Origin: a virus
Taxonomy: Duplodnaviria; Heunggongvirae; Uroviricota; Caudoviricetes
IMG/VR virus record: IMGVR_UViG_2703719355_000003
Reading direction: 5' to 3' (one strand)
DNA length: 12,404 nucleotides
Below the pieces are notes generated by a model that worked only from the letters and a program-made list of their open reading frames with translations, did no database searches and was not told the origin of the DNA. How positions within the stretch are numbered: position 1 is the stretch's first letter; every line of letters begins with the position of its first letter. Made by a program: the position numbers and the translations under genes. Shown here in pieces: positions 1 through 12,404 of this stretch.

Positions 1-437
1 CCAGATGATAATTGCAGTGCAATAGTCCCTGCTTGGGGATTTATTGAATATGCCCCCCATCCATCATTCTGCACAAAAACATAAGATTTTTTGTCTGGTG
101 ACCAAATGCGTGTTTCGTTAGTGTCCTGATCACATCTTTCTAAACCAAGATTTTCGAGAGCCGTTTTCACCGTGCCATCCGATTTGATATCACCAAACGG
201 ATTCTTGCGGCTTAACAGCAGCGTGCGAAGCGCGGTAAGTAGCTGGTTGTGCCGCCCCTTCTCCAGGCTGGCACCGGAAGCCTCCACCACGCTGCAAAGT
301 TCCTCCTGCAACATGTCAAAGTAGTCATCATCCAGATCGGTGGCAGGTGTGCCGGTCTGGGGGTTACCACGGGTAAAACCGTTCTTACCCGCGCCGAACT
401 TATCCTTCTGCGCGGTTTTCGTGTCTATACGATGCAT
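1..437 (-). CDS. Tail fibre protein, N-terminal part (Mu S-like); 5' partial, continues left of window
   Basis: ATG at 437..435, 4 bp after the stop of the upstream gene; my translation reads [67 protein letters not shown]..., which I recognise from memory as the conserved N-terminal domain of enterobacterial Mu/P2-type tail fibres. Frame is open to position 1. Confidence 0.7.
135..160. other. Candidate Gin/Hin/Pin-family invertase crossover site (gix/hix-like) inside the tail-fibre gene
   Basis: TCTTTCTAAACC-AA-GATTTTCGAGAG: two imperfect inverted 12-mers around a 2-bp core; about 8/12 matches per half-site to the gix half-site TTCCTGTAAACC as I recall it. Coincides with a GC drop to the left (~41% counted over 1-120). 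Confidence 0.3.
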
Positions 438-440
438 GGA

Positions 441-1025
441 TTACTCCGGATATTTAAAAATTACGTAGGTATGCGAAGGGCAGAGTTTGTTAAGTACACA
501 CTCGACAACGGTGTTGCCCCAGATACGCAGCGCGGAATCACAGGGATCACCACATGTCATCCAGGTGGTGTTGGTGGCAGCTGGCATGTTGACCTGCCAG
601 TAATACCGCCATTCCGGCGCATTCACTGCGTCAGTACAGGCCGATGAGCAGGTGAACGTGCTTTTATCGTATCGCGTGATGGTGGCGTCTGGTCTGCCCA
701 GGGCAGCAAGCTGTGCAAGGTAAAAATCCTCATTGATGCCGCCCGCCAGATTAACCTTCGCATCCAGCCGTTGCTGACGCTGGCGAAGGGTCTGCGTTCC
801 CGCCGGAATACATTCATCCGGCAGGCCGCACAGACGCTCCCAGCGGTTTATCAGTTCAGTGGTAGTGCGCGGATCCAGCTCCCGCATCAGGGCATCCGCA
901 CGCTGATGAACGCGGGTTAATGACGGTGCCGCACCGGCAATCGCCGGATCGCTGGCTGACCACGCCGGACCGGGGGGCAACAGTGCCGACAACAGACGGA
1001 TGTAATCATCGTTTGTCACGTCCAT
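441..1025 (-). CDS. Baseplate/tail protein, Mu gp48 (R)-like (DUF2313/YmfQ-type, from memory)
   Basis: 194-aa ORF; position between the baseplate J-like gene and the tail fibre; overlaps the upstream gene by 10 bp; N-terminus ...[15 protein letters not shown]... resembles what I recall for this family. Confidence 0.6.
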
Positions 1026-2074
1026 GAAATCGTCCCCAGAACCGCCAGTTCATTTTTTGCAATGGAGATATTGTCCGCCGGAGCAAGCAACTGATGGCTG
1101 TATTCCCCGTTCGCACCGGAAATCGCTTCACTGATACGCGATACCTTCAGCTCTCCCTGCGGATAACCATCACGCAGCAGGAATGAACGCAACTCCGCGG
1201 TGATGGCAGCCCGTATTTCCGGTGTGTCCGGCGTCACGCGGATATGAAAATCCACTTTGTGCGCCACCGGCCTGAATACATACAAATCAGAGCCTGCCAC
1301 CGGGGCCAGTGGCTCGATATGTTGTCTTGCCGCCGTTTCCGTTGATTCTTCCGGAATGGGATTAATCAGGTCACTGCTGGCAATCATCACACCGACAGTT
1401 CCCGTTCCCATCCAGTGACGGTATGTCCATGCGCGGGTAATGCCGGGCACTTCTTTAGCCCAGACGACATAGTCCCCGTCAGCCCCGCCCTGCGGCGTCC
1501 AGTAATACCGCTCAATGACGCGGGCGCGCCACGTTTCCAGCTCTTCAGTATCAAATCCACCTGTCAGGGTATCTGCCTCGCCGGAAGACGGCAGACCATT
1601 CACCGGCGTGACCAGGATTAATGACGTACCGTCGTCAGCGTTACCGACCGCGCCTGCACTTGAGCAGGCGATCGGCACGCGCAGGACACCACCGGTGCTG
1701 GTTGCATCGGCAGTTGCCGTGTACTGAACCAGGTCATCGCGCTGAATAACACTTCCGGCGGTCACCTTCAGGCCATCGCTGACACCTTCCCAGCGCATAT
1801 ACCCGCTGGCAGCCGTGGCCCCCTTGCGCGGACACCGTTTCATCGCAGCATGTCGCGCCAGCCAGGACTCATCGCACAGGTCAGGCAGCATGTTCATTGC
1901 CAGATAATCGATGTAACCGTAAACCGTATGCAGCGCCGCCGCATACACCTTTGCCCGCACGTCTTCATCCATGCGCCGGAGCGTGTCGCTGACGTCCAGC
2001 CTGGCGAATAAATCGTTACGGAGCATACTGATATTTTCTGCCAGCGTCGGGCGCTGAAATTCACTGTCCGCCAT
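1016..2074 (-). CDS. Baseplate J-like protein (Mu gp47/W-like)
   Basis: 352-aa ORF; synteny; size typical of baseplate J-family wedge proteins; overlapping start/stop with neighbours. Confidence 0.75.
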
Positions 2075-2489
2075 GCGTTATCGCACTCCACAGATCATCA
2101 AAAGAAATCATTACCGGTCCGTCACGACGCCAGAGAGTGATACTGTTACCCAGTTCATTAATCCCGGTGCGGCGGATATCCAGATCAATACGGGACACCA
2201 CGCCGTCATCAATCATCCATTGCAGGCATTCGCGGATATACCCCCTTACCGTCTGCACCAGCTGATTGGTCAGTTTGCTGCGCTGAAGCAGCCACAGTCG
2301 GGAGCCGTAACGGTCATTCTGTACCGCAGGCCAGGTATCCCCCCACCATCCCATCGGGACGTCGGCATTATCATCAGGCTCCGCCCGCCGCCAGGTGAAC
2401 AGGGAAATCACCACGGCGCGGGTCAGCGGATCCAGCGGTGCGCTGGCGCAGGTGCGTTTACCGTTCACCGTCAGCCACAGTTCCATCAT
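2061..2489 (-). CDS. Baseplate protein, Mu gp46 (V)-like (GP46 family)
   Basis: 142-aa ORF; synteny between the V-spike-like and J-like genes; 4-bp overlap with the upstream gene. Confidence 0.65.
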   Translation of the reverse strand: MMELWLTVNGKRTCASAPLDPLTRAVVISLFTWRRAEPDDNADVPMGWWGDTWPAVQNDRYGSRLWLLQRSKLTNQLVQTVRGYIRECLQWMIDDGVVSRIDLDIRRTGINELGNSITLWRRDGPVMISFDDLWSAITHGGQ

Positions 2490-3034
2490 GCCTCCATCGC
2501 TTTATCCGGTTTGTCGGTGTTACTGCCCTGACCGTTCTCTCTGTGACGATGGCCGTTATAGGCAAGCCGCATCGCTGACATGGTGGTGCCGCCGGAGTCG
2601 CACAGGTCTTTCACCTGTCCGGTCACTTCCAGGTCCATTTCAAAACGCGCTTTAGGTGAATTGCGAAACGTGATTGTTTTACCTGCACCGTCCACCACGA
2701 TCCCCTCTCGGGTCAGCGTCACGGACTGCCCCTGATCGTCATAGACAGCCACCTCACCCGTCTGCAGCCCTTTCAGGCGGTAGCGCCGGTCCGACACCGT
2801 AACAACCACCGCATGAGAACGGTCGCCATCCGGAAACAACACCACCGCTTCCGCACCGCTGTTTGCCCTTGCGGTAAAACCGTAGGGTTCAAGATGTTCA
2901 ACCCCGGCTTTGGGTTCACCGGCAATCAGGGACACATCCACGGTCTGACATTTCGTGGCGGCACTGATGCTTTTCACCACGGCCCGCCCAATCAGGCCGA
3001 GGAGTTGTCGCTGCATGGCTTCAATCGTCCTCAT
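2486..3034 (-). CDS. Baseplate assembly/spike protein V-like (Mu gp45/Q-like)
   Basis: 182-aa ORF; starts ATGAGG, sharing TGATG with the upstream stop, with AGGAGG just upstream; synteny. Confidence 0.7.
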   Translation of the reverse strand: MRTIEAMQRQLLGLIGRAVVKSISAATKCQTVDVSLIAGEPKAGVEHLEPYGFTARANSGAEAVVLFPDGDRSHAVVVTVSDRRYRLKGLQTGEVAVYDDQGQSVTLTREGIVVDGAGKTITFRNSPKARFEMDLEVTGQVKDLCDSGGTTMSAMRLAYNGHRHRENGQGSNTDKPDKAMEA

Positions 3035-4113
3035 CAGAACGGGTCCTCCTGTACTCTGGCTTTTTTCTTTTTCCGCGCGCCGGGGACTTCGGGTTCAGGC
3101 AGATAAGCATCAGGTGGGCCGACACGGATTTCCGTCAGGGTGCCGTTCTGGTCCTGAGTAAACGTGACTTCCGAAACAAGCAGTTCGGTATTGTCGAAAC
3201 CACAGACCGGATCAAAGACAATCACCCGCTGGTTGGGCTGCCACAGCGTACCGTTACCCTGTCGCCAGCCCTGCACCACATAGGTGGTTTCATCCGTCCG
3301 CGCCGCCCGTTGTCTGGCTTCAAAGTCCGCACGGGCAATACAGCCTGCCCCCGTAGCCTGCCCTGTCTGCCTGATATACATCGGACGGTAACGGGCAATA
3401 AATGCGTCCTCTGTGCGGGCCCGCAGCGCGGTGGTGGTGGCCTCACCGAAATCATCGTCGTTTCCGGCACGCTGCCCCGCCACCTGGTAAACAGAAAACC
3501 GCTCCCGGATACTCTTCTCCGTATCGCAGGAAAGGATGTTTTCCCCGAGTACCAGCGCAGTATGTGCCCGCGTTGAGCCAATACCGCCAATCACCAGCCT
3601 GCCGTGCGGGTCGTCGTAAGCCAGTGCCTGCTGCTGACCGAGTATTTTGTTGATTACCTCAATCACCGTTTCACCGTGATCAGGCTGAACATCAGGAATA
3701 ACACCCGACGGCGCACCGCTGTTCACCACCTCAATGCCGAAAGGCGCAGCAAGCGCCTGCGCAATCTGCACCAGCGAGCGTCCGTTAAACTGTGTCGGTT
3801 CGGCTGCACAGTCAATCAGGTCAGCCGTCAGACTACGTCCGGCAATACCGGTGCTGACCGAACGGGCATCGTAACGAACGGGAGTCGCCTCCACCCAGCC
3901 GGTGATCACCAGCTCATCACCAATCAGCACTTCCACTTTTGAACCGTTTTTAATGCGCGGCTGAAGCGTGGTGATACCCTCATCTCCCGGCCACTGGCGA
4001 GTGATCTCCACACTGAAATCCCGCGCCAGCCGTTCAATACCGGCACCGATGCGCACCGATGTCCAGCCATTCCACTCCCGGCCATTTACCCGTAGCGTGA
4101 CATTGTCGTTCAT
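3034..4113 (-). CDS. Tail/baseplate hub protein, Mu gp44 (P)-like (P2 gpD-like)
   Basis: 359-aa ORF; ATGA overlap with the N-like gene; synteny and size close to Mu P as recalled. Confidence 0.7.
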   Translation of the reverse strand: MNDNVTLRVNGREWNGWTSVRIGAGIERLARDFSVEITRQWPGDEGITTLQPRIKNGSKVEVLIGDELVITGWVEATPVRYDARSVSTGIAGRSLTADLIDCAAEPTQFNGRSLVQIAQALAAPFGIEVVNSGAPSGVIPDVQPDHGETVIEVINKILGQQQALAYDDPHGRLVIGGIGSTRAHTALVLGENILSCDTEKSIRERFSVYQVAGQRAGNDDDFGEATTTALRARTEDAFIARYRPMYIRQTGQATGAGCIARADFEARQRAARTDETTYVVQGWRQGNGTLWQPNQRVIVFDPVCGFDNTELLVSEVTFTQDQNGTLTEIRVGPPDAYLPEPEVPGARKKKKARVQEDPF

Positions 4114-5438
4114 TGCACTGGCACCTTCAGAGGGATCACCGGCACAAAGCCGGGATGCGTAATGGCATTACGCCGGATAATGTCCGCGTCACGCGCCGCG
4201 TTATCAAACCAGGTCGCCGCCAGCACCAGCGCGGGTAAAACCTCATCCGGTGTGCGCTGAATGATCCGTGCAGACTGTTCAAGGCGCGTGTTGATATCCG
4301 CATTCAGATCTGCTTTCACCCGGCGCAGCGCCAGAAACAGCGCATCGCTGGTTGTACGGGACAACTCCTTATCAATTGCCGTATTCAGTGTGTCGCGAAT
4401 GTCAGTCAGTTCTTCCCACGTCGGCAGGTCAACCGTGTTTTTCACCGCCGGTGCATTGTTCAGTGCCGGATGCGTGACGGAAGGCCAGCCAGTGCTCTGC
4501 GCGGGTGTTGTTGCCTGCCCCACTGCGGCATTCTGCATCACCGCGGAAGTTGTTGGCGCAGGCAATCGGGTGACGGCATACGCCGCTTCGCTGATTGCGG
4601 TCGTACGAAGGGTGCTGGCAACCACGTTACGCTGCTGCGTCGCCGTGGCGGTGGTTTTACTGTCCGTTTTCCAGACGCCGCGCGGTTGCAGATCGCTGCC
4701 GAGGCTGACACCGGAAAGCGTTTTGATCATGGTGACCAGGTCGCTGGCGTTACCATAAAGGCGTTTCCCGGTACGCCACATTTTCTGCACCTGCTCAACG
4801 AAATTTTTTCCTGACGATGGCGGCGGCAGAAGTACCGAGATATCCCCCTGCAACAGCCTGGCGGCATCCGATACGGCAGAATCCACCACTTTCATCGCAT
4901 CAGAAACATACCCCAGCATTATGCTGGCATTACCGATAACGTCGTTCTGCACGAAATCCGCCACACCATCGATACTGAAACCGCTGAAGCTGTCACTGAT
5001 GCAGTCATCCAGTGCAGAACAGGATGACATCAGCGTCTGCGCCGTCGCCGCACCTGATGTGGGGTAAGAGAGTTCTCCTGCTTCGACAAACTTCAGGTCA
5101 AAGCGGACAATACGCCCTTCACTTTTCGATGTGCTGACCCGAACTTCCCCGTCAACACAGACTTTCAGCTCACCATATGTCGGGTGGACAAGCGTGCCGG
5201 GACCGGGTTTATTCAGCGCTTCAATCAGGCGATCGCGCTGGTCAAAGCAGTCATCTCCCACCACATAAGCTGTGATGGACGGGCGGAAAGTGACTTTTCC
5301 CAGATCTTCGGTATAGGGCTTGTCGCGGTTCGGATATTCGTGTGTTTCCACACGGCGACCGGTTCCCGCACTTTCTTCTTCAACCTTAAACGGTACGCCG
5401 CGAAATGACGCATCCTGAAGCCTGTCTTTCCACGTCAT
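4110..5438 (-). CDS. DNA circularisation protein N-like (Mu gp43-like)
   Basis: 442-aa ORF beginning MTWKDRLQDASFRGVPF...; GGAG 5 nt upstream of the ATG at 5438; synteny immediately downstream of the tape-measure region. Confidence 0.7.
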   Translation of the reverse strand: MTWKDRLQDASFRGVPFKVEEESAGTGRRVETHEYPNRDKPYTEDLGKVTFRPSITAYVVGDDCFDQRDRLIEALNKPGPGTLVHPTYGELKVCVDGEVRVSTSKSEGRIVRFDLKFVEAGELSYPTSGAATAQTLMSSCSALDDCISDSFSGFSIDGVADFVQNDVIGNASIMLGYVSDAMKVVDSAVSDAARLLQGDISVLLPPPSSGKNFVEQVQKMWRTGKRLYGNASDLVTMIKTLSGVSLGSDLQPRGVWKTDSKTTATATQQRNVVASTLRTTAISEAAYAVTRLPAPTTSAVMQNAAVGQATTPAQSTGWPSVTHPALNNAPAVKNTVDLPTWEELTDIRDTLNTAIDKELSRTTSDALFLALRRVKADLNADINTRLEQSARIIQRTPDEVLPALVLAATWFDNAARDADIIRRNAITHPGFVPVIPLKVPVQ

Positions 5439-5453
5439 ATAAACTCCGGATAC

Positions 5454-5508
5454 AAAAAAACCGCCAAATCTGCTTTGTCAGTTATTTACATCGCAGAAGA
5501 TGTGGCGG
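5454..5508 (-). terminator. Rho-independent terminator downstream of the moron gene
   Basis: On the minus strand, an imperfect GC-rich hairpin (CCCGCCACATCTTCTGCG ... GCAGATTTGGCGG; + coords 5461-5508) is followed directly by TTTTTTT (+ coords 5454-5460). It lies 21 bp after the moron stop and 16 bp before the N-like start. Confidence 0.55.
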
Positions 5509-5528
5509 GAATCTAATATTTTTAATTA

Positions 5529-5978
5529 CTATCTGAGTTGAACATCAATGGAATAAACATCACCACTCTTTATAAATTTAGAATCTGTCCTTTCATCAAA
5601 AGATTCAAATGACTGTACCTTTAAAAACTTTTTCATTTTATTTTCAAAAATACTTTCATTAACACCAGTTAAATACTTGAACGCTCTACCAGTAAGGACC
5701 TCATTACTTAAATCCATTGTGTTTTTATTGTCTTTGAAAAACCAAACAATAACCTTTTGTGGGCATGATGGATTATAAACAGATATATAAAACTGCGGCT
5801 CATATTTTTCATCAGCGTCATCACTAAGCATTTCTTCAGAAGATAATTCTCTTCTGAATTCATATTGCCGCTTAGTTATTCCTTCATCCTTTATTATCTC
5901 TTGCTTAACTGGTGCAATACCTATAGAAGAGATTAATTCTGACTCATTAAAGCTGAACTTACACTCTTCCGCAGCCAA
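5529..5978 (-). CDS. Hypothetical low-GC protein (moron); likely secreted; 5' end frameshifted. As given, the ORF has only a TTG start and no RBS; the probable true start is the ATG at 6022 in another frame
   Basis: 149-aa ORF in strongly AT-rich DNA. The in-frame upstream sequence encodes ...FFISALLSFNLAA-EEC (signal-peptide-like with an AXA-type cleavage motif) but has no ATG. The ATG at 6022, with GAAGGG 6 nt upstream, is in a different frame and terminates at 5933. One extra T in the T7 run (+ strand A7, 6003-6009) would fuse them into MRIFVFFISALLSFNLAAEECKF... (about 164 aa). No motif I can assign. Confidence 0.55.
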   Translation of the reverse strand: MAAEECKFSFNESELISSIGIAPVKQEIIKDEGITKRQYEFRRELSSEEMLSDDADEKYEPQFYISVYNPSCPQKVIVWFFKDNKNTMDLSNEVLTGRAFKYLTGVNESIFENKMKKFLKVQSFESFDERTDSKFIKSGDVYSIDVQLR

Positions 5979-6022
5979 GTTAAAAGATAAAAGTGCAGAT
6001 ATAAAAAAACAAAGATACGCAT
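5933..6022 (-). pseudogene. Out-of-frame 5' fragment (signal-peptide region) of the moron gene, 29 codons
   Basis: ATG 6022 with RBS-like GAAGGG; hydrophobic MRIFVFLYLHFYLLTWLRK...; frame diverges from the main ORF at the A7/T7 tract 6003-6009. Confidence 0.4.
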
Positions 6023-6052
6023 AATCATCCCTTCAATCATTTGTAAGGAATG

Positions 6053-6082
6053 ATTATATTAACTACTTAAAGCTGAAAACCC
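6053..6082 (-). promoter_or_regulatory. Candidate sigma70-type promoter for the moron gene
   Basis: Perfect TATAAT on the minus strand (+ coords 6053-6058), 30 nt upstream of the ATG at 6022; the -35 is weak (TTTTCA-like); AT-rich upstream. Located in the gap after the tape-measure stop. Confidence 0.3.
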
Positions 6083-6121
6083 AAATTATGCCAGACAAAA
6101 ACACATTAATCATTTTGTACA

Positions 6122-7954
6122 CTACCTGAACCGCGTATAGCCAACATCATGGCTGACATCAAAACCGCTGGATCGCGTTTCCATAACCCGCATACCCGGA
6201 GGCGAATTCACAAAAGAGACCTTGATCTCACCATCAACTTTTGGCGCAGAAGCTTTGTTAATCATGAAGGGATTCGGGCCTGTGGCATCGGAGGCGTTGT
6301 TTGACTGAGCCGGATCTACCGCCGGATAAGGTGTGTATCCCCGTGCCGGTATTCCCGTCCCATAAGCATCATAAGCACCCGCCCCCCACTGCGCCGAGTT
6401 AATGGCATCGACCGTGTCACCGGAACTGTCGGTAAACCACTCAATAATTGGCTTCAGCTTGTCCCACATATCCTGAAACCACTTAACAACCGGCCCCCAG
6501 TTATTGATCACCATCCCCAGCGGCGACCAGGCAAAAACTTTCTTAAGGAGTTCCCAGCCAGTCTCAAAATAAGGACCAATGGTTTCCCAGAGTTTCTTAA
6601 AATAAGGTCCGACAACATCCCAGTTAGTGATAATTAATCCCGCAGCCAGGGCTATCGCCGTCGCAATCATGCCAATCGGCGTCATCGACATGAGCCTGCT
6701 GACAATACTGATGGCACTGCCAACGCCCATCAATCCCAGTTTCAGAATCGCAAGACCGGCAGCAAGCCCGACGACGCCGCGAATAACCCGGGGATTTTCA
6801 TCCGCAAACTTCGTGAATTTTTCCCCCAACTCCCCCAGCCATTGCGTGATATTTTTGGCGTCACCAGAAAATGCGCCGCCAATAGCCGCAAGGCCGTTAG
6901 TTGCGGTCCCCGTCATTGCCTCCCACAGGTTGGACAGCGTACCAAGCTGGGCCTGAACACGTTTATTCAGGCTGGCCTGTTTATTCATCTTCTGCTGGAT
7001 CTGATCGTAGCCATCCTTTCCTTTATCGATTAGTGCATTGACCACCTGAAGGGTTTCGGCATCATCACCAAATATTGCCTTAAGTACACCTGTCCGCTTA
7101 ACGTCGGTCAGTTTTCGCAGCTTTGCCAGTTGCCTGAACATGTTATCAAGACCGCCAAAACTTCCTTTGCCGTCAGTAAAATCGAGCTGTACCCCGAGTT
7201 TCTGGCGGGCCATGATTTTATTGACGTCCCTGATTTTCTTAACGCTTAATCCGGACTGGATAACTTTTCGCAGGGCATTACCTGCCGACTCCCCGTTCAT
7301 CCCCATCTGATCCATCATGACGCTGATGGGGGCAAGGCTCTGTGCAGCCTGAAGACCGTCCTTGTTCACCATCTTCAGAACAGAACTGGTTTTAGTGAAG
7401 AAGGACAACATGTTGGTATCGTCAACGCCCAGATAAAACGCCTTCTGGATAGTGTCGAACAGCCCCATCATGTCTTCTGACGCCGTTCCGGTAGCATCCT
7501 GCATCTTTGCAGCAAACTCAGCAGCCGCTTCCGGTGTTTTTTTCAGTTGTACCGCAAGATAAGCTGTCGCTTTACCCACACCGCCAAGAATGTTTTCTGC
7601 CGGGATCCCCTGACGCACCAGCATCTGCATCATGTTCTGGAAATCAGCCGTTGTACCGGGAAGCTGGTTACCCAGGCCAATAGCCAGTTTATTGATGTCC
7701 TGAAAGCGCTTTCCAACCTCGCCATTCGCATCCATCATGGCGACTTTCAGCCCGGTGGCGGCGTTTTCCTGATCGGCATAAGATTTCAGGGAAAGCGTCA
7801 GACCCGCTGCCAGTCCGCCACCAAGCGCCAGCCCACCCTGTGACGCTTCTTCCGCCTGGCGTTTAAATCCCCGTATTTTCTTTTGCATTTTCGACAGCGC
7901 GGGAGAAAGCCTGTCGACACCGGTGATCAACGCCTTAAGCTCAAATTCAGCCAT
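6122..7954 (-). CDS. Tail tape measure protein (Mu gp42/Y-like)
   Basis: 610-aa ORF directly downstream of the tube and chaperone genes; Gly/Ala-rich with a long hydrophobic segment (...VVGLAAGLAILKLGLMGVGSAISIVSRLMSMTPIGMIATAIALAAGLIITNW...) typical of tape-measure proteins; GGAG upstream of the start. Confidence 0.85.
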   Translation of the reverse strand: MAEFELKALITGVDRLSPALSKMQKKIRGFKRQAEEASQGGLALGGGLAAGLTLSLKSYADQENAATGLKVAMMDANGEVGKRFQDINKLAIGLGNQLPGTTADFQNMMQMLVRQGIPAENILGGVGKATAYLAVQLKKTPEAAAEFAAKMQDATGTASEDMMGLFDTIQKAFYLGVDDTNMLSFFTKTSSVLKMVNKDGLQAAQSLAPISVMMDQMGMNGESAGNALRKVIQSGLSVKKIRDVNKIMARQKLGVQLDFTDGKGSFGGLDNMFRQLAKLRKLTDVKRTGVLKAIFGDDAETLQVVNALIDKGKDGYDQIQQKMNKQASLNKRVQAQLGTLSNLWEAMTGTATNGLAAIGGAFSGDAKNITQWLGELGEKFTKFADENPRVIRGVVGLAAGLAILKLGLMGVGSAISIVSRLMSMTPIGMIATAIALAAGLIITNWDVVGPYFKKLWETIGPYFETGWELLKKVFAWSPLGMVINNWGPVVKWFQDMWDKLKPIIEWFTDSSGDTVDAINSAQWGAGAYDAYGTGIPARGYTPYPAVDPAQSNNASDATGPNPFMINKASAPKVDGEIKVSFVNSPPGMRVMETRSSGFDVSHDVGYTRFR

Positions 7955-8365
7955 GTGTGCGTTTCTCCTGCTCTATCCTGTTTGCCTGACTGACCAGCAA
8001 GGGAATTTCACTGATCGGCATATTCAGCAATTCGAAAGGATTAATGCGCCAGTAGCTGGCGCAATCAAAGAAGCGATCAGTAAGGTATTCAGCCGTCAGG
8101 CCTGGAGGAAAAAACCAGCCACAAGCCACGCCGCTGCATTCAGGTCTGCCGGAGACATCTGGTCGACAGAGCTTTGCGGCACTTTCGCCAGCCGCACAAT
8201 ATATTTCGATACCACATGCGCCAGAAGTCTGACGGACTCATCCTGATTCATCTGGTAGGGATACCCCAGCTCGCGGACATCTTTCCCGGTGGGCTCATCA
8301 AACTCCAGTACGGAGAGTGTCTCGCCATGAGCGGTAATCGGTTTCTTTAACTCAAGCTCTTTCAT
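7947..8365 (-). CDS. Tail assembly chaperone, predicted -1 frameshift fusion product (G/GT-type)
   Basis: The -1 frame is open from the slippery heptamer (+ coords 8108-8114) to a TGA at 7947, 7 bp before the tape-measure ATG; this layout is the conserved tail-chaperone frameshift known from dsDNA phages. Confidence 0.5.
8096..8365 (-). CDS. Tail assembly chaperone (Mu gp41-like), frame-0 product
   Basis: 89-aa ORF between the tube and tape-measure genes; shares TAATG with the tube gene; ends 3 codons after a T-TTT-TTC slippery heptamer. Confidence 0.65.
   Translation of the reverse strand: MKELELKKPITAHGETLSVLEFDEPTGKDVRELGYPYQMNQDESVRLLAHVVSKYIVRLAKVPQSSVDQMSPADLNAAAWLVAGFFLQA
8108..8114 (-). 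other. Programmed -1 ribosomal frameshift slippery heptamer (U UUU UUC)
   Basis: Minus-strand T TTT TTC in X XXY YYZ register relative to the chaperone frame; the -1 frame continues for about 55 codons. Confidence 0.5.
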
Positions 8366-8721
8366 TACTGGTAATCCCCTTCTTCACCGTGGAACTCAAG
8401 ATCGACCGTGCCTTCTTCGGCATTATGGTTCGCTTCGCCGTGCAGCCAGGCGGACGACAGTACATAGACCTGACCGTTCGCCAGCTCGGCAGTGATTGTC
8501 ATCTCATCAGACGAGGTGATTTTGCCCACCGGAAAATTCTTCGGCACCTTGAAGGTCCCTTTGACATAAGGCGCACGGTGAGTTTCCTTGCGGTCCACTG
8601 AACCGTCCAGGCCGATGATGTCATCATTAACCATCCTGTTCATGGGCACCTCAATGCCGCCGGTCAGCGATAGCTGCTGACCGTCAATTTTGAAATAACA
8701 GGTTCCCCCGATACGGGCCAT
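8365..8721 (-). CDS. Tail tube protein (Mu gp40/M-like)
   Basis: 118-aa ORF immediately downstream of the sheath gene with TAATG stop/start overlap; size and position match the Mu tube protein as recalled. Confidence 0.8.
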   Translation of the reverse strand: MARIGGTCYFKIDGQQLSLTGGIEVPMNRMVNDDIIGLDGSVDRKETHRAPYVKGTFKVPKNFPVGKITSSDEMTITAELANGQVYVLSSAWLHGEANHNAEEGTVDLEFHGEEGDYQ

Positions 8722-10217
8722 TATGCAGACTCCTCTGAATACTGAAGACGAAACTGGTTAACCACGGCAAAGACACGCAACTGGTTAACATAGTCAGGCG
8801 GGAACAGCGTGTTCAGGCGGTTCGGATCGCTGGCATCACGCTCCACAACCAGGTACTGCTTAAAAAGTTCGTAGTTTTCCACGATCCCCGCACGCTCAAG
8901 CTGACGGTAGGTTGCCAGCAGTTCCCCTTTGATCACCGCCGGGGTGACAATCGCCTGACCGGGACCAAAGCGGGTACCGTCGCTGGCAAGCTTGTGACGC
9001 CCGTACTTACTGGTAATGACGGATTTCAGTTTGCGCAGTACATACGCACTGGTATGCAGCGTCTCGCTGTCGAGGTAGCTGTTATCCGCAACCCCGTAAG
9101 CGTTTTTCCTGTACGTGGTGACATCACGCTGAATGCGCAGTACCCCGCTTTCGACATACGCCGTTGCCACGCCATGAGACAGCAGGGTCTGTTGTTCGGT
9201 CATCGTGAACCGTTTCCCCTTCGGCGCAGACAGCATACCCACCAGCTCACCGGTCTGCGTGGGACGTGCCGGATCGTTGCGGATAAACACCGCTGCGCGG
9301 GCGGTACGGCTTGCCGCCAGCTCGTCGGCAGGCGTCTGGGTGTCTTTTTCGTACCCCGCCAGGGTAATGTGCTGCTGGTTAAACTGGTCACCTGCGGTCA
9401 CCAGTTCTGACAGCGTGCCGATCTTTGCCGTATACACATGACCATACAGCTGACGCGCATAGCTCCAGCGACCGCTGGTATCGTTCATCTCGGTCACCAG
9501 CGTGTTAACGGAGGCCGTGTCGTTGAACGGCAGGCCGATATAATCAAACGGCTCATCCGCCATTGCAGCCACCGCGCCGGTGAGAACCGGAGCACCCGTA
9601 CCGGCGGTACCCGTCGCCACGGCAATCTGTACGCCCGCTGGCAGCACTTCGCCCCCACCAAAGCCGTAGTAATTGAGGCTGACAGGAATTTCATTCCCGC
9701 AAAGCCCCTTATGACGCGCGGTCAGTGTGACCACGCCTGCCGAAGATGAAGCCGTAAACGGCAGGGCCGGAACGGCATTGATGGCATCTTTGATACTGCT
9801 GGCAATCGTCGTGACGTTATCGCCGTTGGTCACCGGAGCCTGCACGCGGGTACGTCCCACATAAACATTCACCGTGCCGGTTTCGGTTGCCGCGCCGGTC
9901 ACCGTCAGCGTAACTGTTGCCGCCGCGCCCGTGGATTCAGGAACGGCAATCACATACAGTTCACCAAACGGGTCGGTCTGGCGATAAGCCTCGACCATAC
10001 GCGCCAGCTGACTTCCCGCACCACAAATCTGGCGTGCATAGTCTGCCGATGGCATCAGCACCAGACTGTTGGCAACAATCTCTGCACCGTTATTGGCATG
10101 ACCAATCAGCAGCGATGCTCCGCTGTCCTGTGCAGTATTCGCCGCCTGGTTATCCATTTCCGCATAAAAAATCGGAACCAGCGTATTCGACGGAATGGTG
10201 TTAAAGCTTATCGTCAT
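8721..10217 (-). CDS. Contractile tail sheath protein (Mu gp39/L-like)
   Basis: 498-aa ORF; size close to Mu L as recalled; followed by the tube gene; N-terminus MTISFNTIPSNTLVPIFYAEMDN... is sheath-like. Confidence 0.85.
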   Translation of the reverse strand: MTISFNTIPSNTLVPIFYAEMDNQAANTAQDSGASLLIGHANNGAEIVANSLVLMPSADYARQICGAGSQLARMVEAYRQTDPFGELYVIAVPESTGAAATVTLTVTGAATETGTVNVYVGRTRVQAPVTNGDNVTTIASSIKDAINAVPALPFTASSSAGVVTLTARHKGLCGNEIPVSLNYYGFGGGEVLPAGVQIAVATGTAGTGAPVLTGAVAAMADEPFDYIGLPFNDTASVNTLVTEMNDTSGRWSYARQLYGHVYTAKIGTLSELVTAGDQFNQQHITLAGYEKDTQTPADELAASRTARAAVFIRNDPARPTQTGELVGMLSAPKGKRFTMTEQQTLLSHGVATAYVESGVLRIQRDVTTYRKNAYGVADNSYLDSETLHTSAYVLRKLKSVITSKYGRHKLASDGTRFGPGQAIVTPAVIKGELLATYRQLERAGIVENYELFKQYLVVERDASDPNRLNTLFPPDYVNQLRVFAVVNQFRLQYSEESA

Positions 10218-10371
10218 CGGTATTCACCTTTTCATTCACGCGCCGGATATCACCCGCTGCTTCACGGCGCAGCCAGTAGTTGTTCTCATCAACATTTCGC
10301 CCCTCGGCGGGCAAAAGGTCACCGCGGGCAGGGTCAGGAACTGACCGCCCTTTAACAGGTTTCACAAACAT
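10201..10371 (-). CDS. Small conserved protein, Mu gp38-like (DUF2635-type, from memory)
   Basis: 56-aa ORF absent from the supplied track (below its length cut-off); my translation is MFVKPVKGRSVPDPARGDLLPAEGRNVDENNYWLRREAAGDIRRVNEKVNTDDDKL. It fills the gap before the sheath gene and overlaps its start by 17 bp. Confidence 0.5.
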   Translation of the reverse strand: MFVKPVKGRSVPDPARGDLLPAEGRNVDENNYWLRREAAGDIRRVNEKVNTDDDKL

Positions 10372-10379
10372 GAAGATTC

Positions 10380-10949
10380 TCAGGAAGGAAGGGTTATTTC
10401 GGTGTGATGTTCGATATCGCCGTCAGGCCCGTTACCGGGATCGAGATAATCAACATCAATCGCCAGCGTTCGCAGTTCATCCAGACTGTTCAGGTCATCC
10501 TGCTGGCGGGTATCGTCTTCGGTCAGCTCGCTGATGACCGAAAAATCGAACTGATAAATCAGCTCATGACGATTCAGATCCAGCAGCGTGCCGCCGTCAT
10601 AGGTAATCGGGTTACCGCACGCTTCCGGGTTCCAGCCCAGCAGAGCCTTAAAGAGCATCTGCCGGACATCGTCCACCACATCATACGAGGCAAACTGACC
10701 GCGCTCATCACGCCCGTTACTCAGTATGACAACCACGGAGAAGCCCTCTTTCAGCTCCTGCCAGTAGTCGGTCTGGCTTTTGTTTTCTCCCGGAGAGTCA
10801 TCACCCGGTACCACATACGCCGCCGGGAGTCTCAGCTTTCCGACCTCCGGCAGATTTTTGAACTGTGCCGCGCCTGCCACCCGGTTTTCAAAATACGGGC
10901 AGCGGGCACGCAGCGCAGCAATAACAGGCGTCAGTTTCATCTGTGTCAT
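10380..10949 (-). CDS. Putative tail completion/sheath terminator protein (Mu gp37-like)
   Basis: 189-aa ORF; synteny upstream of gp38-like and sheath genes; 4-bp overlap with the upstream gene. Function assigned by position only. Confidence 0.45.
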   Translation of the reverse strand: MTQMKLTPVIAALRARCPYFENRVAGAAQFKNLPEVGKLRLPAAYVVPGDDSPGENKSQTDYWQELKEGFSVVVILSNGRDERGQFASYDVVDDVRQMLFKALLGWNPEACGNPITYDGGTLLDLNRHELIYQFDFSVISELTEDDTRQQDDLNSLDELRTLAIDVDYLDPGNGPDGDIEHHTEITLPS

Positions 10950-11443
10950 CGCTCCGGCTTTAGTGATTTACGCAATTCCCGCGCCAGAAAATAGCGTGTC
11001 CAGCTGCGGTTCTTTTCAAGCGTTTCCACCATAAAGTTATTACGTGGAGCCAGCCGCCAGCCGCTGCCACCGGATGCACCACGATGATGACTACGACGAC
11101 GTTTTGCTCCTCCCCGGACACCAAAAAACAGAAACGCCGGATAGAAGTCACCAGAGATCATCCGGTTCCCCTTCCCGTTGCGCTGGTTAGGGGCAATGCG
11201 TGTCATAAAACCGGCTCGCTTTTTACTGGCTCTCGGCACCATGTAACCAATCGAACGAGCCAGGCGTCCGGTCTGATAACCGGGGTTTTCACCCGGTGCC
11301 GACCGCGCACGGCGCATCACCAGCCGACGGGCATCACGCATATGACGCTGCCCAATCGTGACAAACGCCCGCCGGACACGGGCGCGGTTAAAGCGCATCT
11401 CCGCGGGCTGCTGAACATCAACGTGAAAAAAGGGAGTCGCCAT
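10946..11443 (-). CDS. Neck/tail-completion protein, HK97 gp10-like family (tentative)
   Basis: 165-aa highly basic ORF; GGAGG 5 nt upstream of the ATG at 11443; contains ...PGYQTGRLARSIGY..., resembling the P-x-x-T-G-x-L-x-x-S motif I associate with gp10-type neck proteins. Confidence 0.45.
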   Translation of the reverse strand: MATPFFHVDVQQPAEMRFNRARVRRAFVTIGQRHMRDARRLVMRRARSAPGENPGYQTGRLARSIGYMVPRASKKRAGFMTRIAPNQRNGKGNRMISGDFYPAFLFFGVRGGAKRRRSHHRGASGGSGWRLAPRNNFMVETLEKNRSWTRYFLARELRKSLKPER

Positions 11444-11828
11444 TGCTGCCTCCGTGACTCTGCGTAAATTCGCCCAGTTCCGTACACTCCAGCAGCAGAA
11501 AGCGCCGCGCCCCGTTCAGATCGCGCTGACGTTTCACCCGGTACACACTGTCATCACAGACCACCTCATAATCAGCAGTGATCCCCCGGCGGTAGCGAAT
11601 GGTGATGTAATGGGTGATGGCGTCTCCGGTCTGCGCGGTTTCCTGCCAGGTGGTGGCACTGGTCTGGATAACCTTCGCCCATGCCCGGAACGCAACCGGG
11701 TATTGAGGCTCCACGCCAAAGTTATCCGCGGGCATATCCACCCGCTGGCGGATCAGGACGCGTTTATTCAGTTCGCCGGGGTCCGGCAGAATGTAGGTTG
11801 CGCTGGTCTGCGCCTGACGAATTTTCAT
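11418..11828 (-). CDS. Head closure / head-tail adaptor protein (tentative)
   Basis: 136-aa ORF; ATGA overlap with the upstream connector-like gene; ...FRAWAKVIQTS...THYITIRYRRGI...YRV... resembles head-closure family patterns as recalled. Confidence 0.5.
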   Translation of the reverse strand: MKIRQAQTSATYILPDPGELNKRVLIRQRVDMPADNFGVEPQYPVAFRAWAKVIQTSATTWQETAQTGDAITHYITIRYRRGITADYEVVCDDSVYRVKRQRDLNGARRFLLLECTELGEFTQSHGGSNGDSLFSR

Positions 11829-12147
11829 AGTGGTATAAGGCGATAAGGAACAACCAACCAGTTAAAACTCATTGGCAACTCCATTTTCTCAACGTCTGTA
11901 ACCGTTGAGCGGTTTTCGTAGAAATGGCTGACAAGTAGCAGAAGCGCCAGCTTCACATCATCAGATATCACAAGCCCATCAGGATCATCCGCAGGCCTGT
12001 CATCTGCGGTTGCATACAACTTACGGTTAAGGAAGTTTTCCGTACGACTCTGAGCGGCCTTACCAAGCAGTTCAAGCAACTCATCTTCATCAGAGAAATC
12101 ATCATCCAGACGGAGCTGAAGCTTAATCTCTTCCATTTTTAACAGCA
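11825..12147 (-). CDS. Head-tail connector protein, gp6-like (tentative)
   Basis: Start taken at the ATG at 12147 (MLLKMEEIKLQLRLDD...), 4 nt downstream of a perfect AGGAGG, rather than the longer track ORF; ...ALLLLVSHFYENRS... resembles the gp6-like connector family. Confidence 0.55.
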
Positions 12148-12157
12148 TAAAACCTCC

Positions 12158-12179
12158 TGTGCCCGCCAGAACGCGGGCA
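12158..12179 (-). promoter_or_regulatory. Perfect 8-bp GC-rich hairpin abutting the RBS of the connector gene
   Basis: GTGCCCGC-CAGAAC-GCGGGCAC on the + strand; on the minus-strand mRNA it sits between a U8 run and the AGGAGG. Not terminator-shaped for either strand (the U-run is 5' of the stem on the minus strand). Confidence 0.4.
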
Positions 12180-12200
12180 CAAAAAAACCGCATTACGCGG
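12180..12200 (-). terminator. Weak terminator/attenuator candidate after the upstream head gene
   Basis: On the minus strand a short CCGC-GUAAU-GCGG hairpin (+ coords 12188-12200) is followed by U8 (+ coords 12180-12187); only a 4-bp stem, so low confidence. Confidence 0.25.
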
Positions 12201-12226
12201 CGTGCTGTATTACGTAAAAAGACTAA

Positions 12227-12404
12227 TCAACCACCAACGCTACCTTTCCCCACCAGCGCTTTAATGGCAGAGGTGTCTTCCAGGATACAGTCAAAACGAT
12301 GGAAGGCCAGAAAACCAGTCTGATCATATTCCGCGTAATGAACCGCCCCGGAAATCCTGGAGACTAAACTCCCTGAGAAAGAGGTAAACAGGATGACTAA
12401 AAAT
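12227..12404 (-). CDS. 3' end of upstream late gene (possibly the major head protein); partial
   Basis: The only frame open from the window edge to a TGA at 12229..12227 (59 codons, ...HYAEYDQTGFLAFHRFDCILEDTSAIKALVGKGSVGG*). Its position upstream of the connector gene suggests a head gene; not recognised by sequence. Confidence 0.4.
   Translation of the reverse strand, partial: FLVILFTSFSGSLVSRISGAVHYAEYDQTGFLAFHRFDCILEDTSAIKALVGKGSVGG

Follow-up and report, generated by a model that had tools for sequence, protein, structure and literature searches.

We have identified, inside the tail-fibre gene of a Mu-tail prophage, a 26-bp site that is in good likelihood an orphan crossover site of the pix type (Pin/Gin, Din family), left behind in a fibre that became locked when the rest of its inversion cassette was lost. 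The site lies near the left end of the window, by which we mean the whole stretch of DNA analysed (12,404 bp), equal to the entire contig CYGN01000093.1 of assembly GCA_001286505.1. It belongs to the tail-fibre gene of an SfV-like prophage and sits where the constant part of that gene meets the variable part, at the position that the proven crossover site pixL occupies in the e14 prophage. In the ancestor, as in many living sisters, such a site would pair with an inverted partner located just upstream of a Pin-like serine invertase, and inversion of the roughly 1.8 kb between the two sites would swap the receptor-binding fibre end together with its assembly gene. The present element would have lost the alternative fibre end with its assembly gene as well as the partner site and invertase, and what remains leftward would be one fibre end (366 aa for the whole fibre), one assembly gene, dinI, an integrase and the dusA attachment site. 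With the distal half of the switch gone, the fibre would be locked, and the site would survive because it is coding sequence for an N-L-G-L motif.

The understanding of invertible fibre segments, with their crossover sites, goes back to the work on Mu, P1 and e14, and the phenomenon described here is known biology that is well documented for such segments. What the locus offers is a clean example of one prophage lineage in switchable, crippled (truncated invertase) and apparently locked (cassette deleted) forms, together with a receptor-binding cassette that has been spliced at this same joint onto three unrelated tails. For annotation, the lesson is that a sequence similar to a crossover site is not enough, when found in a fibre gene, to predict a functional switch; checks for a partner site and an invertase are needed as well.

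The site and the mosaic joint of the fibre gene

All long open reading frames of the window are on the minus strand and make up a Mu-type tail module that comprises sheath, tube, tape measure, DNA-circularization protein and homologues of the baseplate proteins gp44-48. Baseplate_J, GP46 and Mu_Gp45 are among the called genes, and Phage_Mu_Gp48 was recognized by Pfam. By megablast, Shigella phage SfV, its relatives SfI, SfII and SfIV, and the prophages of about 1,600 complete E. coli genomes are 95-99% identical to the window. The Mu-type baseplate genes are followed by an StfP-like fibre N-terminus, the arrangement that characterizes the SfV-like/e14-like Mu-tail prophages. Coordinates of the features are collected in Table 1.

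Table 1. Features of the 12,404-bp window that are discussed in the text
Feature	Position	Strand	Basis or remark
pix/gix-type crossover-site homologue	135-160		e14 pixL positional orthologue; weight matrix; homology breakpoints
Site, variable-side half	135-146		
Site, core (AA)	147-148		
Site, constant-side half	149-160		
StfP-family tail-fibre gene, 5' part (codons 1-145 of 366)	1-437	-	Open frame, ATG at 437 to position 1; exits left contig end
Fibre constant part, codons 1-92	161-437	-	GC 55.6%; ~96% identical to e14 stfP
Start of variable receptor-binding part of fibre	1-134	-	GC about 41%
YmfQ / Mu gp48-like baseplate wedge gene	441-1025	-	Pfam Phage_Mu_Gp48, E = 9.6e-27; directly upstream of fibre gene
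Open reading frame between tape-measure and DNA-circularization genes	5529-5978	-	TTG start, 149 aa
Second mosaic breakpoint of tail module	about 5415-6130		
Terminus of IS3-like element, IS1203/IS629 family	12339-12404 (66 bp)		100% identical; 23,289 places in E. coli genomes

The site reads TCTTTCTAAACC AA GATTTTCGAGAG (contiguous form TCTTTCTAAACCAAGATTTTCGAGAG), and its coding strand, CTCTCGAAAATC TT GGTTTAGAAAGA, specifies A-L-E-N-L-G-L-E-R. An earlier note on this DNA, made from the sequence, had reported an imperfect 26-bp palindrome at this place that resembles invertase crossover sites at about 16 of 24 half-site positions. The repeat is indeed present exactly there and is unique in the window, and the likeness amounts to 16 of 24 half-site positions against Mu gixL (taken from the Mu genome) and to 19 of 24, plus both core bases, against e14 pixL. 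As a palindrome the site is weak: by count, 5 of its 12 half-site positions obey the dyad, as compared with 9 in e14 pixL and 7 in Mu gixL. A second copy with at most three mismatches was found neither elsewhere in the window nor in 200 shuffles, and the same search of the window, L001 and L002 returned nothing beyond the site itself. The partner sites of sister prophages become visible only through a looser core scan combined with a weight-matrix scan, since in them CCTTT or CGTTT replaces GGTTT.

The weight matrix was built from 13 half-sites, taken from sites that border proven invertible segments. The window site scores 18.6 bits, against 10.4 for the runner-up in the window and a maximum of 16.2 over 200 shuffles, a score that is partly circular because the training set includes the constant-side half of e14 pixL, a half-site orthologous to the window's own half. 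Sites bordering proven invertible segments obtain 13.8 to 32 bits with the same matrix, most of them 25-32 and the weakest 13.8, and the window site stands at the low end of this functional range. Some of the distance from the canonical sequence can be followed among relatives. In 9 of the 10 listed contexts that have this fibre end on the window's backbone the site reads AAAATC, whereas AAAACC is found in L007, in the copies on other backbones (strain A41 and contig 14 of the source genome) and in those sister prophages, with other fibre ends, that were read. This C-to-T change beside the core is synonymous (Asn, AAC to AAT), and the variable-side half of the window site equals the canonical half at 8 of 12 positions. 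The change is compatible with selection that still maintains the protein but has become relaxed on the DNA as a target of the recombinase, and the site may on this evidence be drifting as such a target.

Composition and homology both change at the site. The earlier note had pointed to a composition break to the left, and GC content is 40.8% over 1-120 and 41.8% over 1-134, against 55.6% in the constant part; across the entire variable part, read in a near-identical relative, it is 49%, a milder drop. Up to the site, SfV-family prophages match the constant part at 95-98% identity. Inside the site the homology to about 1,600 related SfV-like prophages ends: of the alignments, which cover 12 phages, about 1,600 E. 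coli genomes and 10 contigs of the same backbone, nearly all begin at 141-147. The site had been likened in the note to gix of Mu gene S, at the junction of constant and variable parts, and these breakpoints place it exactly at the joint. The window displays the Din-family arrangement, a 26-bp crossover site inside a fibre gene at the constant/variable joint, and alignment identifies the site as the positional orthologue of e14 pixL, itself a proven crossover site.

The full 366-aa fibre reading frame is present in L001, L012 and L029 (17518-18618 in the last), and its C-terminus matches Pfam Gp53-like_C. The protein contains four N-L-G-[LV] motifs, at residues 96, 159, 188 and 251, and two internal repeats of about 60 aa each that end in GGTGA..A.AR.NLGLG. 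Short fibre ends of sister prophages, for example the silent 132-aa copy of strain UTAK-14, align only to residues 251-366, and it appears that the fibre end grew longer when a unit with the crossover-site motif at its borders was duplicated. The internal N-L-G-L-G copies were also considered as secondary Min-like sites and rejected; one has a good variable-side half (GGTCTGGGAGAT), and scored over the full site none reaches 8 bits. The mosaic joint has left its mark on public annotation. RefSeq breaks the intact fibre reading frames of L001 (9141-9437) and L002 (9143-9487) in two at the crossover site, giving a pseudogene labelled 'StfP, missing C-terminus' and a 'gp53-like domain-containing protein', and the UTAK-14 fibre gene (L004 6550-7296) has been automatically annotated as 'integrase'; these misannotations are artefacts caused by the joint.

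Of 5,426 complete E. coli genomes, only 3 contain the variable part (1-134). Three unrelated fibre N-termini have been found joined to it, and an assembly gene and dinI always follow it; the three carriers of this module are the SfV-like backbone, a DUF2612-type phage in strain A41 and a Mu-like prophage on contig 14. In A41 and contig 14 the common sequence continues 75-90 bp beyond the site, into a conserved linker, so those two exchanges did not take place at the core. Exchange between unrelated phages seems to use homologous recombination in the conserved linker, while invertase action at the core is the within-element mechanism. A search of the phage collection with the variable part (1-170) found no similar sequence, and an exact 60-mer spanning the junction had 0 matches in a set of one genome per species.

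At the opposite end of the window, the IS element interrupts the major capsid gene 37 codons ahead of its stop. It is absent from the 99.98%-identical L029 and L030 and present in L032, and it accounts for the right-hand contig break. The prophage of the source strain is probably defective, and with an IS in the capsid gene host-range switching would be of little consequence there. Within the tail module, the reading frame between the tape-measure and DNA-circularization genes encodes 164, 170 or 176 aa in several relatives.

Relatives with and without the switch

The closest complete-genome relative, E. coli UTAK-14, is 98.7% identical over 142-12338 of the window. To the left of its fibre constant part it carries a fibre end with an assembly gene, then another assembly gene and a Gp53-like fibre end, both inverted, and next a 185-aa gene with Resolvase and HTH_7 domains, dinI, an integrase and dusA. 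Among the 10 listed contexts that encode exactly the window's DNA-circularization protein, 7 have a 187-aa invertase; that of L021, the only one compared, is 56% identical to PinE. Intact invertases (Resolvase plus HTH_7) were found in L004/L028, L017-L019, L021, L022, L025 and L026. A partner site, TTCTCCCAAACC AA CCTTT..., is located ~60 bp upstream of the invertase in 5 of the 7 invertase-bearing contexts, the exceptions being L022, with a one-base variant, and L019, in which the inner half is replaced. Where the partner is intact, its inner half is identical, after reverse complementation, to that of the left site, and the partner sites of sisters score 13.6-27.3 bits at the expected place. 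An alternative fibre end, an assembly gene, a partner site and a serine invertase, all of which the earlier note had predicted, are found together in sisters that share the tape-measure or the DNA-circularization protein, and judging from these sequences the lineage as a whole uses a site of this type as a switch.

The left flank of the window's own prophage is in our reading equal to that of its near-identical relatives. L029 differs from the window by 3 mismatches in 12,338 bp (99.976% identical) and continues with the rest of the 366-aa fibre, an assembly gene of 145 aa and, after a spacer of 168 bp, dinI. Over 2,151 bp L009 has the same sequence as L029 (100% identity), and it then proceeds to the integrase and dusA. 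The best other candidate for an inverted partner site in the flanks of L029 and L009 scores 8.1 bits, which is chance level. No invertase lies between the assembly gene and dinI in L029, L009, L001 or L006. An inverted alternative fibre end with its assembly gene was sought in L009 and L029, and nothing but a 15-codon antisense remnant of a TfaE-like gene is left there. The partner, alternative fibre end and invertase that the earlier note expected further left are absent from the near-identical L029 and from L009. It had named observations that would speak against its proposal, and for the most part these were made: L029 and L009 show no partner above chance level and no invertase within a few kilobases, and in SfV the same site is plain coding sequence of a non-invertible fibre. 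The proposal of a switchable fibre is right about what the site is and how the lineage behaves, and finds no support for this element, from whose near-identical relatives the cassette is absent.

The wider set of relatives is in keeping with this. All 10 listed contexts that encode exactly the window's YmfQ protein carry this fibre end; 8 of them have the simple layout without any invertase, and the other 2 (L012 and L016) have a partner site and a truncated invertase. In 3 complete genomes and the sampled contexts, this fibre end was never found in a silent inverted position and is always in frame with the constant part. In the Gin, Cin and Hin systems the Fis-dependent recombinational enhancer that acts in cis lies within the 5' part of the invertase gene. 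As the closest relatives have no invertase gene, the usual location of such an enhancer is absent from them.

Traces of a former cassette are present in these relatives. If exactly 1,696 bp (16111-17806) are taken out of the invertible sister L021, the result is the sequence of L009, and the junction, GGTAT/TAATTT, is clean. The block includes the assembly gene and fibre end in inverted orientation, the partner site, and the invertase as far as its stop codon. L009 and L029 retain, in antisense, the last 15 codons (TSTAPDVIWPELPEA) and the stop of a TfaE-like gene, which span 21 nt after the stop of the assembly gene (L009 9130-9150, L029 19059-19079) and the overlapping 3' end of the assembly gene. 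From its sequence we take this to be a remnant of the alternative cassette, and we infer from this short remnant that the difference arose by deletion rather than by non-acquisition.

In L012 and L016 the assembly gene is followed by an inverted TfaE/StfE-like cassette, a canonical e14-type pixR (27.3 bits) and a truncated invertase of ~118 aa without the HTH domain (L012 10263-10619, L016 6878-7234). In these two contigs a 334-aa SDH_protease-like gene comes after the truncated invertase (L012 10833-11837) and is missing from dusA-integrated relatives. Both contexts diverge from the window beyond position 5414 (tape measure of 633 aa vs 610 aa), and their gene content makes them look like an intermediate stage of switch loss.

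The contig ends can be accounted for by repeats. Another Mu-like prophage, unrelated to this one, lies on contig CYGN01000014.1 of the same genome (contig 14), and it shares the variable part of the fibre. Its module (L006 10196-12002) consists of the fibre P0001 of 367 aa, the assembly gene and dinI, with no cassette. From position 23 leftwards the window is identical to this prophage, so that its left end is 22 nt past the last base that distinguishes it from the contig 14 copy, and L029, as a proxy for the window, differs from the contig 14 module at 1 of 1,584 bases beyond window position 23. The left contig break is explained by this common repeat. The contig end was also considered as an inversion breakpoint and rejected, as the contig passes the site by 134 bp and stops at the repeat shared with contig 14. 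The near-identity of the modules in two co-resident prophages hints at a recent exchange. Logan contig L032 ends exactly at the core (window 147), which shows only an assembly-graph branch; a second prophage or an e14 that shares the constant part gives the same picture.

Alternative explanations

One alternative is that the segment still inverts, the unseen DNA to the left holding an inverted partner, an alternative fibre end, an assembly gene and an invertase, with inversion by this invertase or, if it is truncated as in L012 and L016, by a Pin protein of another prophage in trans. The site is a true pixL orthologue with a score in the functional range, sister prophages have the full cassette, L012 and L016 have this very fibre end beside tfaE', Sv', pixR and a truncated resolvase, and inversion in trans is documented both for a cassette with a truncated invertase (EC958 Phi4, PMC4134206) and for PinQ/PinR acting on e14 (PMC12529663). 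We nonetheless regard a working switch as unlikely, given that L029 and L009 have no cassette between the assembly gene and dinI, that L012 and L016 carry another tape-measure allele and differ past 5414, that the contig 14 copy of the module likewise passes from the assembly gene to dinI, that the contig break is explained by the contig 14 repeat and not by a break at the core, and that no sampled genome has this fibre end silent or inverted. A quite different account denies the site any recombination history: its likeness to crossover sites would be a by-product of the conserved fibre motif A-x-x-N-L-G-L, and the composition break would be ordinary mosaicism through homologous recombination. 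The fourfold occurrence of N-L-G-[LV] in the fibre agrees with this, as do the plain coding role of the same site in the non-invertible SfV and the homology in A41 and contig 14 that runs past the site. It is at odds with the scores of the other three motif copies (all below 8 bits), with the codon-for-codon orthology to a site of proven inversion, with the partner site and invertase in same-backbone sisters, and with the TfaE-like remnant and clean 1,696-bp difference from an invertible sister, which point to a lost cassette; we consider this account improbable. Hardly any probability attaches to the palindrome being an RNA or DNA structural signal within the fibre gene (hairpin, terminator or regulatory stem). 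The repeat is inverted and imperfect, as such a signal could be, but its symmetry is confined to the 5 of 12 positions given above and the mRNA fold of 115-180 (-11.8 kcal/mol, z = -0.37) is matched or bettered by 72 of 200 shuffles, so a hairpin or terminator was rejected; moreover, no compensatory changes were seen across relatives, and the flanks are near-invariant coding sequence.

An orphan site with its cassette lost therefore remains the reading that we prefer, and under it the site would no longer be used. Against it stand the score of the site, which exceeds that of the weakest site bordering a proven invertible segment, and the retention in L012 and L016 of a 27.3-bit partner site and an inverted cassette together with this fibre end. 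SfV provides a precedent for an orphan site without an invertase. An orphan site might still be bound by Pin-family invertases encoded elsewhere and act as a docking point for cassette exchange between co-resident prophages, an idea suggested by the near-identical fibre-end/assembly-gene/dinI modules of two unrelated Mu-tail prophages, both of which start at the site. We think this very unlikely; if it were true, the near-identity of the modules could reflect a recent exchange of this kind rather than ordinary homologous recombination.

Comparison with known invertible segments

In the P1 C segment (cix/Cin) and in p15B Min, crossover sites double as module boundaries of fibre genes, and orphan and quasi sites, as well as the shuffling of fibre ends between unrelated phages, have already been described. 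A review by Sandmeier, cited in PMC4134206, reportedly treats both fibre module shuffling and invertible fibre segments.

The cryptic prophage e14 of E. coli K-12 has the same gene order as the window, ymfQ and then the fibre gene, and the order around its P segment is ymfQ-stfP-tfaP-tfaE-stfE-pinE, with the sites pixL and pixR. Its stfP is about 96% identical to the constant part in the window (96.2% over window 142-1803). The pixL site occupies the same codon as the window site and has the TT/AA core in common with it, and the variable part begins at the core; the window's variable-side half is off that of e14 at 4 of 12 positions, and its constant-side half has T for C beside the core. In e14, pixL is the left arm of an inverted pair around the P segment, with its partner pixR just upstream of pinE, and experiments have demonstrated that PinE, as well as PinQ/PinR from other prophages, inverts the segment at exactly these repeats (PMC12529663). 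The further parts of the e14 switch, namely pixR at a distance of 1.8 kb, the inverted tfaE-stfE cassette and an intact PinE, are all missing from the near-identical copies of the window element.

SfV (orf20-orf21-orf22), SfI, SfII and SfIV have a Mu-like tail module that is 95.8-96.8% identical to the window over 142-1100, and in SfV, too, the fibre gene comes next to the YmfQ / gp48-like gene in the order found in the window. Like the window's relatives, SfV has a single fibre end, one assembly gene and an orphan crossover site in the fibre gene, and no invertase. In SfV the orphan site is canonical (29.5 bits), the fibre is 216 aa long and O-antigen gtr genes come after the assembly gene, whereas the window element has a 366-aa Gp53-like fibre followed by dinI, and its site is degraded to the score given above.

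In prophage Phi4 of strain EC958 the invertase is truncated before the HTH domain, both sites are kept and both orientations have been seen, presumably through inversion in trans (PMC4134206). L012 and L016, with the same fibre end as the window, have similarly truncated invertases; the window's closest relatives differ from Phi4 in having lost the partner site altogether.

In the G segment of Mu (S/U, S'/U', gixL/gixR, Gin), the site is inside the fibre gene at the constant/variable boundary, as it is in the window. Mu and the window also have homologous neighbouring baseplate genes (gp47 and gp48). Unlike the window's relatives, Mu has both sites and Gin, and its core is TC/GA rather than TT/AA. 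The fibres of Mu and the window are without sequence similarity outside the N-L-G-L motif, which Mu gixL encodes in the same frame as the window site (F-I-Q-N-L-G-L-Q-E in Mu).
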